Source: Escherichia coli
GTDB lineage: Bacteria; Pseudomonadota; Gammaproteobacteria; Enterobacterales; Enterobacteriaceae
Reading direction: 5' to 3' (one strand)
NCBI RefSeq assembly: GCF_003018115.1
Contig: NZ_CP027457.1
DNA length: 64,000 nt
Part shown: positions 47,677 to 53,786 of the stretch, one piece after another
Layout of the letters: the number at the start of each line of letters is the position of its first letter
Numbering within the stretch: the first letter of the stretch is position 1
The notes under the pieces: model-generated
What the model was told of the DNA's origin: nothing
What the model saw: only the letters and a program-made list of their open reading frames with translations
The model's database searches: none
Translations under genes and position numbers: made by a program

Positions 47677-50031
47677 CTATTTTGCAGTCACAACCTGCAT
47701 GCCAGACGGTTCATTTTGCAGCGCCAGAGTCAGAACTTCCTCAATGCGCTTCACAGGATGAATGTCCAGATCGGCAATTACGTTGTCAGGAATCTCTTCC
47801 AGATCGCGTTTATTTTCGAACGGAATTAACACTGTTTTAATCCCGCCGCGATGCGCTGCCAGTAGTTTTTCTTTCAAACCACCGATCGGCAGTACCTGAC
47901 CACGCAGAGTGATCTCACCGGTCATTGCCACATCGGCACGAACCGGGTTACCGGTCAGGCAAGAAACCAGCGCGGTGCACATAGCAATACCAGCACTCGG
48001 ACCATCTTTCGGCGTCGCACCTTCCGGTACGTGGACGTGGATGTCGCGTTTTTCGTAGAAATCAGGGTTGATCCCCAGTTTTTCCGCACGCGCACGAACC
48101 ACCGTTAACGCCGCCTGAATGGACTCCTGCATCACTTCACCGAGCGAACCGGTATAGGTCAGTTTGCCTTTCCCCGGAACGCACGCGGTTTCAATGGTCA
48201 GCAAGTCACCGCCCACTTCCGTCCACGCCAGACCGGTTACCTGACCGACACGGTTTTCGTTATCCGCGCGTCCATAGTCAAAACGCTGAACACCGAGATA
48301 GTCATGCAGGTTATCGCCGTTAATTTCGATATGTTTTAATGACTTATCGAGCAGTAACTGCTTAACCGCTTTACGGCACAGTTTGGAGATTTCACGCTCC
48401 AGACCACGCACGCCCGCCTCACGGGTGTAGTAACGAATAATGCCGATAATGGCGCTATCGTCGACGGTCAGCTCACCTTTTTTCAGTGCATTACGTTCAA
48501 TCTGCTTCGGCAGCAGGTGACGTTTGGCGATGTTCAGTTTTTCATCTTCGGTATAACCGGAGAGGCGAATCACTTCCATACGATCCAGCAGCGGTGCCGG
48601 AATGTTCATGGAGTTCGACGTCGCGACAAACATCACGTCGCTGAGATCGTAATCCACTTCCAGGTAGTGGTCGCTGAACGCTACGTTCTGCTCTGGATCG
48701 AGCACTTCAAGCAGTGCAGAGGCCGGATCGCCTCGCATGTCAGAAGACATTTTGTCGATCTCATCGAGCAGGAACAGCGGGTTTTTCACGCCCACTTTCG
48801 CCATTTTCTGGATCAGTTTACCCGGCATAGAACCGATGTAAGTACGGCGGTGACCACGGATTTCCGCTTCATCACGCACGCCGCCCAGCGCCATACGGAC
48901 ATATTTACGCCCAGTGGCTTTGGCGATGGACTGACCCAGGGAGGTTTTACCTACCCCCGGCGGCCCTACCAGGCAGAGGATCGGTCCCTTGATTTTGTTG
49001 ACACGGCTTTGAACCGCAAGATACTCAAGGATTCGATCTTTCACGCGCTCCAGACCATAATGGTCGGTATCAAGGATTTCCTGCGCCTGACGCAGGTCTT
49101 TTTTGACCTTGCTGCGCGCATTCCACGGTACCTGTACCATCCAGTCGATATAACCACGCACTACGGTCGCTTCTGCCGACATCGGAGACATCATTTTCAG
49201 CTTCTGCAACTCTGCTTCCGCTTTCTCTTTTGCCTCTTTCGGCATCTTCGCCGCGTCGATTTTGCGCTTCAGGGCTTCGTTTTCGTCCGGCGCGTCGTCC
49301 ATTTCACCGAGTTCTTTCTGAATAGCTTTCATTTGCTCGTTCAGATAGTACTCACGCTGGGATTTCTCCATCTGCTTTTTAACGCGGTTGCGAATGCGTT
49401 TCTCAACCTGCAGCAGATCGATTTCCGATTCCATCATTGCCATCAGATATTCCAGACGTTCGTTAACGTCGGACATCTCCAGAACGGACTGTTTGTCAGC
49501 CAGTTTCAGCGGCATATGTGCAGCAATGGTATCCGCCAGACGCGCCGGATCGTCGATGCTATTCAGCGACGTCAGCACTTCTGGTGGGATTTTTTTGTTC
49601 AGCTTGATGTAGCCTTCGAACTGGCTGATTGCAGTACGCACCAGCACTTCCTGTTCTCGCTCATCAATGGTCGGCGACTCCAGATACTCCGCCTTCGCAG
49701 AAAAGTGTTCGCCATTGTCAGAGAGCGCAGAAATACGCGCGCGCTGTAACCCCTCGACCAGCACTTTGACGGTGCCGTCAGGCAGCTTCAGCATCTGCAA
49801 TATAGAGGCCACGGTCCCGACGGTGAAAAGATCGTTTACACCCGGCTCATCCGTTGAAGCTTCTTTCTGCGCGACCAGCATAATTTTTTTATCATGGTCC
49901 ATCGCCGCTTCCAGACAACGGATAGATTTTTCCCGCCCGACAAATAAGGGGATGACCATGTGCGGATAAACCACCACATCGCGCAGCGGCAATACGGGGA
50001 TTTCAATGCGTTCAGAACGCTCAGGATTCAT
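47677..50031 (-). CDS. lon: ATP-dependent Lon protease (784 aa)
   Basis: ORF 47677..50076 (-) trimmed to [18 protein letters not shown] (ATG at 50029-50031); Walker [10 protein letters not shown]; catalytic serine in PKDGPSAG. Confidence 0.97.
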
Positions 50032-50114
50032 AGAGCTCTCTCTTAGTTTAATTTCCGCCAGGTAATCAGATGACACGACTGTGCTTCACGCCATCTATTA
50101 ACATGTACGTCAGT

Positions 50115-50149
50115 ATATGGGGATGTTTCCCCCACATTCAACGCCGAGA
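50115..50149 (-). promoter_or_regulatory. sigma32 heat-shock promoter of lon
   Basis: The minus strand reads tctcggcgTTGAAtgtgggggaaacatCCCCATATa, matching the sigma32 -35 and CCCCATnT -10, about 85 nt upstream of the lon ATG. Confidence 0.7.
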
Positions 50150-50151
50150 AT

Positions 50152-50187
50152 AGAGGAAAAATTAAAGGGGAGATAAAATCCCCCCTT
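50152..50187 (-). terminator. Terminator downstream of clpX
   Basis: On the minus strand, hairpin aggggggattttatctcccct is followed by ttaatttttcc. Confidence 0.65.
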
Positions 50188-50218
50188 TTTGGTTAACTAA
50201 TTGTATGGGAATGGTTAA

Positions 50219-51493
50219 TTATTCACCAGATGCCTGTTGCGCTTCCGGCTTGCCATAAATCAGCAACGGTTTGCTTTGACCATCAATTACCGACTCGTCG
50301 ATAACCACTTTTTCGACATCTTCCATGGACGGCAGATCGTACATGGTATCGAGCAGTGCGGCTTCTACGATGGAACGCAGGCCACGGGCACCGGTTTTAC
50401 GCGCCATCGCTTTCTTAGCGATAGCATCCAGCGCCTCGTCACGGAATTCCAGATCCACGCCTTCCAGATTAAACAGCGCCTGATACTGCTTGGTCAGGGC
50501 GTTTTTCGGCTCTTTGAGGATCTGAATCAGAGCTTCTTCGCTCAGTTCATTCAACGTTGCGACAACCGGCAGACGACCAATGAACTCAGGGATCAGACCA
50601 AACTTGATCAGATCTTCCGGTTCAACCTGCGCCAGCAGCTCGCCTTCGCTTGCTTTGTCGGACTTCGCTTTTACCGTCGCGCCAAAACCAATGCCGGAGC
50701 CGGTTTCTACACGATGGGAAATCACTTTATCCAGACCGGCAAACGCACCGCCACAAATAAACAGGATCTTAGAGGTATCAACCTGCAAGAATTCCTGCTG
50801 CGGATGTTTACGCCCACCTTGCGGTGGAACAGCAGCTACCGTACCTTCGATCAGTTTCAACAGTGCCTGCTGTACGCCTTCACCGGAAACGTCACGGGTA
50901 ATAGACGGGTTGTCTGACTTACGAGAAATCTTGTCGATTTCATCGATGTAGACAATCCCGCGCTGCGCTTTCTGTACGTCGTAATCGCACTTTTGCAACA
51001 GCTTCTGAATGATGTTTTCAACGTCTTCGCCCACATAACCGGCTTCGGTCAGCGTGGTTGCGTCGGCCATGGTGAACGGGACGTCCAGCAGGCGCGCCAG
51101 CGTTTCAGCCAGCAGCGTTTTACCGGAACCAGTCGGACCGATCAGCAGAATGTTACTTTTGCCCAACTCGACACCATTGCTGGTATCGCCGTTGCGCAGA
51201 CGTTTGTAATGGTTGTATACCGCGACCGCCAGCACTTTTTTCGCCTGTTCCTGGCCGATAACGTAATCGTCCAGGTGGTTACGAATTTCATGCGGCGTCG
51301 GTAGCGCACTGCGTTCACGATGCGGTGCAACTTCTTTAATCTCTTCGCGAATGATGTCGTTACATAAATCAACACATTCGTCGCAGATATACACGGATGG
51401 ACCGGCAATCAGCTTGCGCACTTCATGCTGGCTTTTGCCGCAAAAAGAGCAATACAGCAATTTGCCTGAGCCATCTTTGCGTTTATCTGTCAT
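50219..51493 (-). CDS. clpX: ATP-dependent Clp protease ATP-binding subunit ClpX (424 aa)
   Basis: ORF 50219..51493 (-); N-terminal C4 zinc finger (CSFCGK...CDEC), Walker A GPTGSGKT. Confidence 0.98.
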
Positions 51494-52242: not shown

Positions 52243-52321
52243 TTCCGTCTCCTGGATAAAATTGAAAAAACCTGCTGTACCGATTGTAACCTTATGGACG
52301 GATTATCAGCTAGTCCCTGTG

Positions 52322-52354
52322 TTATGGGTACGGCATCACCATATTTCAAGCATA
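52322..52354 (-). promoter_or_regulatory. Putative sigma32-type promoter upstream of clpP
   Basis: The minus strand reads tatgCTTGAAAtatggtgatgccgtACCCATAAc, a CTTGAAA -35 with an imperfect CCCCAT-like -10; weaker match than at htpG and lon. Confidence 0.45.
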
Positions 52355-52421
52355 ACAATCTTTTGTTGTTACGCTAACACCGAAAGAGGCTTTTCGCACG
52401 GTTCCATGCAAAATTCATGAC

Positions 52422-52456
52422 AAAAAAAAGCCCACCACCTGGCGGTGACGGGCCTT
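52422..52456 (-). terminator. Rho-independent terminator downstream of tig
   Basis: On the minus strand, hairpin ggcccgtcaccgccaggtggtgggc is followed by ttttttttg. Confidence 0.8.
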
Positions 52457-52487
52457 TGTGCGAATTTAGCGCGTTATGCTGCGTAAA

Positions 52488-53786
52488 TTACGCCTGCTGG
52501 TTCATCAGCTCGTTGAAAGTGGTTTCTTTTTCAGTCACTTTCGCTTTCGCCAGTACAGCTTCAACAGCCTGTTCTTCCAGAGCAACATTGCGCATGTTGT
52601 CCATCAGTTCTTTGTTTTTGCTGTAGAACTCGATAACTTCTTTCGGATCTTCGTACGCAGAAGCCATCTCTTCGATCAGGCCTTTCACGCGCTCTTCGTC
52701 AGCTTTCAGCTGGTTGGTGCGGATAACTTCGCCCAGCAGCAGGCCAACAACTACGCGGCGTTTAGCCTGTTCTTCGAACAGTTCGCGCGGCAGTTCCAGA
52801 GCTTGTTTTTCGTTGCCACCGAAACGCTGTGCAGCCTGACGACGCAGAACGTCGATTTCGCTGTCAATCAGCGCAGCCGGTACGTCGATGTCGTTAGCTT
52901 TTACCAGACCTTCGATCGCCTGAGACTTAACGCGGTTACGGATGGCGCTCTTCAGCTCGCGCTCCATGTTTTTACGCACTTCAGCGCGCAGACCTTCTAC
53001 GGAACCATCTTCAACGCCGAAACGTTTGATGAATTCTGCAGTCAGTTCCGGCAGTTCACGCTCTTCAACTTTCTTCAGGTTGATAGCGAATTTCGCTGCT
53101 TTACCTTTCAGGTTTTCTGCGTGGTATTCTTCCGGGAAGGTCACGTCGATGGTGAACTCTTCGCCAGCTTTGTGGCCTTTGATACCGTCTTCAAAGCCCG
53201 GGATCATACGACCCTGGCCCATCGCCAGTACGAAATCAGACGCTTTACCGCCTTCGAACTCTTCGCCGTCTACAGAACCGGTGAAGTCGATGGTTACGCG
53301 GTCTTCTGCTTCAACAGCGCCGTCTTTTTCTTTCCAGGTCGCCTGCTGTTTACGCAGAGTATCCAGCATGCCGTCAACGTCAGCGTCGGTCACTTCAACG
53401 ATCGGTTTTTCAACTTCGATCGCTTCCAGACCCTGCAGTTCAACTTCCGGATAAACTTCAAACTCTACAGAGTAGGTGAAGTCTTCACCCAGCTTGTATT
53501 CGCCCGGAACATAAGTCGGTGCGCCAGCCGGATTGATTTTTTCTTTAATGATGGCGTCAATGAAGTTACGGCTCATCAGGTCACCCAGAACGTCCTGGCG
53601 TACAGACGCGCCATAACGCTGAGCAACGATATTCATTGGCACTTTGCCTTTGCGGAAGCCGTCAATACGTACTTTTTTCGCAACGTTGACCAGCTCGCTT
53701 TTAACAGCGGTCTCGATGCTGTCAGCAGCGATAGTAATCGTTACACGGCGGCCAAGGCCTTGAGTGGTTTCAACTGAAACTTGCAT
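52488..53786 (-). CDS. tig: Trigger factor Tig (432 aa)
   Basis: ORF 52488..53786 (-); recognised N-terminus [54 protein letters not shown]. Confidence 0.98.

Follow-up and report, generated by a model that had tools for sequence, protein, structure and literature searches.

Transcription units and sigma32 promoters of the tig-clpP-clpX-lon locus in an Escherichia coli genome

Introduction

The proteostasis cluster tig-clpP-clpX-lon of Escherichia coli, together with its sigma32 promoters and the clpPX operon, entered the textbooks from the late 1980s and 1990s onwards, and the heat induction of these sigma32 promoters is established knowledge. Here, we describe this cluster in a stretch of 64,000 nucleotides (nt) from the E. 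coli contig NZ_CP027457.1, hereafter the window, in which it occupies positions 47677-53786, from the lon stop codon to the tig start codon. Positions are those of the window, and features lie on the minus strand, unless stated otherwise.

The consensus of sigma32 (RpoH) promoters has been given as CTTGAA-N13-17-CCCCATNT (PMC4263515) and, in a variant form, as CTTGAAA-13/15-CCCCAT (PMC3168786). RpoH promoters have been reported for lon, htpG, and clpP of Shewanella (PMC3168786), and in Salmonella clpP, clpX, and lon each possess a sigma32-activated promoter, that of clpP being the strongest (PMC4957304). For E. coli K-12, start sites and sigma-factor binding derived from chromatin immunoprecipitation (ChIP) have been compiled (Cho, 2014, Table S6; PMC3923258), and transcript 3' ends have been mapped by Term-seq (Adams et al., 2021; PMC7815308). 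A small RNA (sRNA), SraA, has been described between clpX and lon of E. coli (PMC3384567), and the lon promoter contains one site into which IS186 has inserted repeatedly (SaiSree, 2001, as cited in PMC3045373).

Our analysis identified, with high confidence, the canonical E. coli tig-clpP-clpX-lon(-hupB) locus, organized in three main transcription units rather than four, with sigma32 driving clpPX, lon, and htpG. The locus has already been described in detail. An earlier sequence-only reading of the window had described four tandem genes separated from one another by intrinsic terminators and therefore tuned individually, with sigma32-type promoters upstream of lon (50115-50149) and htpG (13841-13868) and a weaker one at clpP (52322-52354).

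Identity and conservation of the locus

Protein identities were assigned from whole-protein scores above the curated NCBIfam equivalog cut-offs, and all four proteins scored above them. Lon (endopeptidase La, 784 aa, 47677-50031) reached 1,818 bits with NF008053 (cut-off 891), ClpX (424 aa, 50219-51493) 719 bits with TIGR00382 (cut-off 371), ClpP (207 aa, 51619-52242) 370 bits with TIGR00493 (cut-off 309), and trigger factor (Tig, 432 aa, 52488-53786) 477 bits with TIGR00115 (cut-off 180). The four proteins were identical to those of K-12 with the sole exception of the substitution E359Q in Tig. The genes, their order, and their tandem arrangement on the minus strand had been read correctly from the sequence, as both the coordinates and the equivalog assignments demonstrated.

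A megablast search found the region 47400-54300 in 5,424 of 5,426 complete E. coli genomes (best match 99.9%), and the matches carried the gene labels bolA, tig, clpP, clpX, lon, and hupB, with the tig label carried in 5,418 genomes. The closest database matches of the cluster stretch were isolates from chicken faeces (99.9%). Relatives were sampled as one genome per species by using the Lon N-terminal peptide as a degenerate DNA pattern, which yielded 120 gammaproteobacterial loci and a few others. The order tig-clpP-clpX-lon was adjacent and co-oriented in 44 of the 51 loci with enough flanking sequence; clpX lay directly upstream of lon in 79/86, and hupB was the next gene after lon in 50/53.

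Over its whole length, the window aligned collinearly with K-12 MG1655 444,919-508,910 in reverse-complement orientation, at 98.7-98.8% identity. The five intergenic regions of the cluster (1,108 nt) differed from K-12 at one position, 51515 in the clpP-clpX spacer, vs 59 differences in 6,144 coding nt (Fisher p = 0.0009), a pattern showing that the non-coding DNA of the cluster is more constrained than its synonymous sites. This low intergenic divergence extended over 47469-54129. Because the cluster is nearly identical to that of K-12, the published K-12 transcript maps transfer directly to the window.

Start sites, sigma32 occupancy, and 3' ends were accordingly taken from published K-12 data on near-identical sequence (promoter and terminator spacers identical, one single-nucleotide difference in the clpP-clpX spacer); gene identities, motif positions and their statistics, terminator structures, and cross-species conservation were determined here. 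Positions in the start-site table (v2) were converted to NC_000913.3 by adding 776, and window positions were obtained as 508,919 minus the v3 position (508,908 minus v3 near htpG). The four converted starts at 50106, 52314, 13832, and 52342 all fell on A residues at the expected spacing, which supports the conversion, albeit indirectly. For Term-seq, an intrinsic-terminator score of at least 3.0 suggests intrinsic termination (PMC7815308). The supplements of a SMRT-Cappable-seq study contained no entries for tig, clpP, clpX, or lon, and a genomic SELEX study contained no RpoH entry at the cluster genes, its only site there being one between tig and clpP in the RpoS section.

Terminators and the clpP-clpX junction

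We defined an intrinsic terminator as a GC-rich hairpin followed directly by a U-tract. Such structures were found after tig, clpX, and lon, and none was found at the clpP-clpX junction; the proposed terminator between each pair of genes was thus canonical at three of the four junctions and missing at the fourth. The tig terminator (52418-52457) consisted of a GC-rich hairpin at 52457-52426 with a 14-pair stem and U8 (fold z -3.4), and a K-12 3' end at 456,492 corresponds to window position 52427, the third U of this tract (PMC7815308). The clpX terminator was part of a bidirectional structure (50154-50193, both strands) that the terminator scan scored as terminator-like on either strand. On the minus strand, the hairpin 50188-50164 (11-pair stem) is followed by AAUUUUU and ends clpX, and on the plus strand, GGGGAGAUAAAAUCCCC is followed by CCUUUUU and ends the sRNA gene sraA. 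Just past the clpX hairpin, at window position 50161, lies the K-12 3' end 458,758, with an intrinsic score of 6.2 (PMC7815308). The lon terminator (47603-47646) combined a 14-bp stem (47646-47613) with U7; its fold z was -4.2, and none of 200 shuffles was as stable.

Conservation of the tig and clpX terminators was assessed by per-sequence hairpin detection, which replaced column-wise covariation. In a 15-species alignment of the clpX hairpin, 77.6% of the cells were paired, but a slide by +2 gave a higher score, since stems built from runs of G/C and A/T, with loops of differing size, drift out of register. Terminator-like sites were present in 48/101 clpX-lon, 20/69 tig-clpP, 15/59 lon-hupB, and 8/77 clpP-clpX spacers of Gammaproteobacteria, compared with 2-7 in shuffled spacers, so that, of the four junctions, clpP-clpX was the one that most rarely had such a site. 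Among loci encoding a Lon at least 84% identical to that of E. coli, nearly all of them from Enterobacterales, hairpins with differing stem sequences were found after tig in 8 of 11 and, with a T-run, after clpX in 15 of 19; the clpP-clpX spacer carried a terminator-like site in 2 of 12.

At 51620-51540, the 125-nt clpP-clpX spacer (51494-51620) folded into a branched stem-loop (-48.1 kcal/mol for the 132 nt folded, z -2.05). The U-poor sequence UUUGCGUCG follows this structure, and nothing terminator-like was returned here by the terminator scan of the sense strand. The spacer also contained an internal clpX promoter, sigma70-like at 9/12, with a -35 element ATGCCA (51619-51614), 18 nt of spacing, and a -10 element TATACT (51595-51590). 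A K-12 start at v2 456,560 corresponds to window position 51583, a G located 7 nt past TATACT, and a further start, with 827 reads, corresponds to position 51717 within the 3' end of clpP (PMC3923258). A -10-like element CTATA(A/C/G)T was present in 10 of the 11 Enterobacterales clpP-clpX spacers seen and absent from that of Klebsiella sp. BIGb0407. A transcription unit 'clpP;clpX' is listed for K-12 (PMC3923258). These data indicate that clpP and clpX are co-transcribed as an operon uninterrupted by a canonical terminator, and that internal promoters, located in the 3' end of clpP and in the spacer, account for any separate tuning of clpX. Co-transcription of clpX with clpP, topped up internally, agrees with the report on Salmonella (PMC4957304). 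The earlier description of individually tuned units hence has to be revised from four to three, with clpP and clpX in a single unit.

One K-12 3' end, 457,390, corresponds to position 51529 in this spacer; it lies outside any U-tract and was recorded in one of three conditions, lysogeny broth (LB) at an optical density (OD) of 2.0 (PMC7815308). The start at 51583 and the -10-like TATACT lie about 55 nt upstream of this stationary-phase 3' end, all within 51529-51595 of the minus strand. An RNA species spanning 51583-51529 could represent a short transcript or the product of attenuation or processing. To our knowledge, no such species has been described.

The stem-loop admits two further explanations. 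It may act in RNA processing or stability, or as a weak attenuator, and thereby set the ClpP:ClpX ratio after transcription has begun, a proposal that we consider possible, if doubtful. The structure is stable, the condition-specific 3' end lies just past it, the spacers of the cluster are under purifying selection as judged from the single difference noted above, and transcription of clpX could resume from the internal promoter that lies within the structure. However, the z-score is modest, the -10-like element and not the structure is conserved outside close relatives, cleavage or attenuation has no direct evidence, and the 3' end may belong to an intermediate of RNA decay.

An arrangement in which the clpP-clpX junction, too, has an intrinsic terminator and all four genes are terminated and tuned independently is unlikely. 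A stable branched stem-loop does fill the spacer, the 3' end at 51529 lies 11 nt past the base of the stem, and clpX has start sites of its own, but the stem leads into UUUGCGUCG instead of a U-tract, the sense strand was blank in the terminator scan, the 3' end was confined to one condition, and K-12 clpP;clpX is listed as a single transcription unit. Moreover, terminator-like sites at this junction were close to background both in Gammaproteobacteria and in Enterobacterales, and the hairpin was not conserved beyond Escherichia, Citrobacter, and Enterobacter-like genomes. One clpPX operon with internal clpX promoters is therefore the reading that we retain.

Promoters of htpG, lon, and clpP

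We scanned both strands of the whole window with the sigma32 consensus CTTGAA-N13-17-CCCCATNT, which has 13 specified bases, and compared the matches with 200 dinucleotide-preserving shuffles. Three matches of 12/13 or better were observed vs 0.33 expected, and six of 11/13 or better vs 7.5 expected. The htpG and lon motifs were above chance, and the clpP motif was at the window-wide chance level. All three motifs were recovered where the sequence-only reading had placed them, at 13/13 for htpG, 12/13 for lon, and 11/13 for clpP; its ranking of clpP below the other two was also correct, although by sequence alone this site does not rise above chance. Rather than lying away from the proposed -10 elements, the mapped K-12 starts were located 8-9 nt downstream of all three and were accompanied by sigma32 ChIP signal.

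The htpG promoter (13832-13868) comprised CTTGAA (13868-13863), a spacer of 15 nt, and CCCCATCT (13847-13840). Its full-consensus motif (13868-13840) was reached by none of the 200 shuffles, and approximately 0.009 such matches are expected per window. The K-12 start at v2 494,300, for which binding H (sigma32) only is given, corresponds to window position 13832, an A located 8 nt past the last -10 base and upstream of the htpG ATG at 13788 (PMC3923258).

The lon promoter (50106-50149) comprised an extended -35 element TCTCGGCGTTGAA (50149-50137), a 14-nt spacer, and the -10 element CCCCATAT (50122-50115), the motif at 50142-50115 being GTTGAA-N14-CCCCATAT. The K-12 start at v2 458,037 (1,744 reads, binding D+H) corresponds to position 50106, an A located 9 nt past the last -10 base (PMC3923258). 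In the clpX-lon spacers of 15 Enterobacterales, TTGAAT and CCCCATAT were invariant and the 14-nt spacing was constant, while the last 11 positions of the spacer varied freely, the classic signature of a functional promoter. Among 101 gammaproteobacterial clpX-lon spacers, 70 reached 11/13 on the sense strand vs 1 on the antisense strand and 0.9 in shuffled sequences. The lon start codon was taken as ATG 50031, in agreement with the K-12 annotation and with the fit of the equivalog model to 784 aa; AAGAGAGAGCTCT, directly before this ATG, was invariant in the 15 Enterobacterales. The mechanical open reading frame start, GTG 50076, was rejected, as the segment 50076-50031 varies in sequence and length among species. 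The G5-N6-C4 sequence GGGGGAAACATCCCC (50133-50119) between the -35 and -10 elements of lon was not occupied by IS186. Because the lon promoter is intact and free of IS186, the strain is expected to be Lon-proficient and to express lon normally.

Upstream of clpP, two promoters overlapped. The sigma32 promoter (52314-52350) comprised CTTGAA (52350-52345), a spacer of 15 nt, and ACCCATAA (52329-52322); the probability of such a match (52350-52322) arising by chance on the sense strand within the 245 nt between tig and clpP was 0.014. The K-12 start that fits it, v2 455,829 (1,303 reads; binding DSNHE, binding plus motif DSNH), corresponds to position 52314, an A located 8 nt past the last -10 base (PMC3923258). 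The upstream promoter, of sigma70/sigmaS type (52342-52377), has the -10 element TATGCT (52354-52349), and its start, v2 455,801 (3,166 reads, binding DSNHE), corresponds to position 52342, an A located 7 nt past TATGCT (PMC3923258). The clpP promoter region is dual, responding to sigma32 and sigma70/sigmaS, because this second, stronger start follows a TATGCT that overlaps the sigma32 -35 element. The block GATTGTTATGCTTGAA at the upstream promoter was conserved in Enterobacteriaceae and Erwiniaceae. At the sigma32 promoter, CTTGAA(A/T) was kept in all seven non-symbiont Enterobacterales tig-clpP spacers scored, with 11-12 of 13 bases matching, and the -10 element drifted among ACCCATAA, ACCCATTA, CCCCAATT, and CCCCAGAT in Enterobacterales, with the full CCCCATAA in Klebsiella sp. 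BIGb0407. At 11/13, 69 gammaproteobacterial tig-clpP spacers gave 11 matches on the sense strand vs 0 on the antisense strand.

That the clpP motif is a chance match, with clpPX driven only from the sigma70/sigmaS start at 52342 and any heat induction being indirect, is very unlikely: matches of 11/13 do occur at chance frequency in the window, the upstream start is the stronger one, the tig-clpP spacer contains an RpoS site in the SELEX study, and an equal or better match (12/13) upstream of yajR lacks sigma32 support, but a separate start with sigma32 binding plus motif lies exactly 8 nt past the -10 element, the local sense-strand probability is low, CTTGAA(A/T) is invariant in the non-symbiont Enterobacterales scored, Klebsiella sp. 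BIGb0407 has the full CCCCATAA, and the matches in the 69 spacers are all on the sense strand. ClpP was also reportedly found to be a sigma32-dependent heat-shock protein by Kroh and Simon in 1990. Thus, the dual promoter remains the preferred account of clpP.

The tig starts of K-12 showed binding DSN and no H (sigma32) signal (PMC3923258).

The clpX-lon spacer and sraA

The sequence-only reading had missed an sRNA gene, sraA (Rfam RF02029; 50103-50198, plus strand), which matched the full model with 106.7 bits (gathering threshold 56). The gene lies antisense to the lon promoter and to the first bases of the lon transcript, and it shares the clpX terminator hairpin (50164-50188). It is annotated in K-12 as G0-8861, with a 5' end extending beyond the Rfam boundary (PMC7815308); the RefSeq annotation of MG1655 does not include it. 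Among 12 Enterobacterales loci, 10 had a match to the sraA model in the clpX-lon spacer. Because the model covers the conserved lon promoter and clpX terminator, this conservation is not evidence for selection on the RNA; it is fully explained by the two overlapped elements. A search for a convincing sigma70 promoter of sraA at 50040-50100 (plus strand) yielded ATGACA-N19-TATTAA alone, with poor spacing.

The 187-nt clpX-lon spacer might act as a compact regulatory node, in which sraA transcription, starting within the DNA of the lon 5' UTR and running across the lon sigma32 promoter to the shared bidirectional terminator, would compete with or occlude sigma32 polymerase, or the reverse. We consider such interference quite unlikely; if it did occur, basal sraA transcription would set a threshold for Lon induction.

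Further features of the window

The third match of 12/13, equal in score to that of lon, was located at 62168-62197 (plus strand), approximately 55 nt before the yajR ATG at 62253, and read CTCGAA-N16-CCCCATGT. As a fourth heat-shock promoter it was rejected, since the K-12 data comprise sigma70 binding only and no start at the expected position, and it is probably a chance match. An 11/13 match at 14887-14914 (CTGGAT-N14-CCCCATTT), at the end of dnaX and upstream of ybaB-recR, had a score at the chance level.

Inside tig, a very abundant antisense 3' end has been recorded at K-12 455,736 on the minus strand (window position approximately 53183, plus strand), with 31,650 reads in one growth condition (PMC7815308). 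A sigma70-like match, TTGATA-N17-GATCAT, lies on the same strand at 53179-53207.

The sole break in collinearity with K-12 was at 11034-11088 in the adk-hemH spacer, where approximately 50 nt failed to align, probably because a repetitive extragenic element differs between the two genomes. Other Rfam matches (148-427, 7488-7565, 1725-1808, 15488-15552, and 32355-32451) comprised four naRNA4 (REP-like) repeats, sroB/ChiX, the dnaX frameshift element, and 4.5S RNA (ffs), as would be expected in this region of the E. coli chromosome.

Discussion

Taken together, the data suggest the following model of the locus. The tig gene would be transcribed alone, without sigma32 binding, as a housekeeping unit insulated by a strong intrinsic terminator. 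The clpPX operon would be transcribed from two overlapping promoters, the sigma70/sigmaS-type promoter starting at 52342 for basal expression and the weak-consensus sigma32 promoter starting at 52314, with extra clpX-only transcription from the internal promoters, and would end at the bidirectional hairpin terminator. Directly after this terminator, lon would be transcribed from the near-consensus sigma32 start at 50106 and would have its own strong terminator before hupB. The clpX terminator would insulate lon from clpPX readthrough, and the lon terminator would likewise insulate hupB; lon would depend on its own promoter because readthrough from clpPX is blocked. Upon heat shock or protein misfolding, sigma32 would accumulate and bring RNA polymerase to CTTGAA-N14/15-CCCCATNT, raising transcription of clpPX, lon, and the distant htpG and leaving the level of tig unchanged.

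Several observations weigh against this model or parts of it. By sequence alone, the clpP motif is indistinguishable from chance, and its -10 element is poorly conserved beyond close relatives; the two clpP promoters, at a distance of 28 nt, are too close to each other for ChIP to resolve. The stationary-phase 3' end in the clpP-clpX spacer means that some termination or processing may take place there, and the part of the Term-seq source considered here (PMC7815308) gives no 3' end at the lon terminator in K-12. The start-site and ChIP data come from K-12 and not from the strain of the window, with the conversion validated indirectly. Finally, heat induction itself rests on established knowledge and not on this analysis.

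The discovery value of this analysis is small, and its main use is as a calibration of what can be read from sequence without tools. A reader without tools can locate the sigma32 promoters of lon and htpG with single-base accuracy. A consensus match of 11/13, as at clpP, becomes credible only in the context of start sites, ChIP, and conservation. The assumption that a hairpin in every spacer is a terminator overcalls operon boundaries.

Comparison with known systems

SraA (psrA/t15; RF02029) is represented by a full-length model match in the clpX-lon spacer, on the strand opposite to both genes, as in the described system. The IS186 hot spot of the lon promoter is likewise recognizable, in that GGGGGAAACATCCCC matches the published site, which is unoccupied in the window; a single base interrupts the G run in Citrobacter and Enterobacter (GTGTGGGAAACATCCCC), and more distant genera have an unrelated spacer.

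As members of the gammaproteobacterial RpoH promoters, the htpG promoter has the perfect consensus and the lon promoter lacks only the first C of the -35 element, and the starts at htpG, lon, and clpP lie 8-9 nt past the -10 element with sigma32 ChIP signal. Throughout the Gammaproteobacteria the lon promoter is conserved, in line with the report on Shewanella lon, htpG, and clpP (PMC3168786). The clpP promoter differs in its degenerate -10 element ACCCATAA and in its overlap with a sigma70/sigmaS promoter, which make it a dual-input rather than a pure heat-shock promoter.

The closest described system is the tig-clpP-clpX-lon-hupB locus of K-12 MG1655 (b0436-b0440; NC_000913.3 455,133-461,723). 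The two loci share gene order, strand, and all five proteins except for Tig E359Q, and their promoters, terminators, and sraA are identical in sequence, since the intergenic DNA matches at all but one base. They differ at approximately 1% of sites, mostly synonymous positions in coding regions, and the window represents another lineage of E. coli with the same locus architecture.

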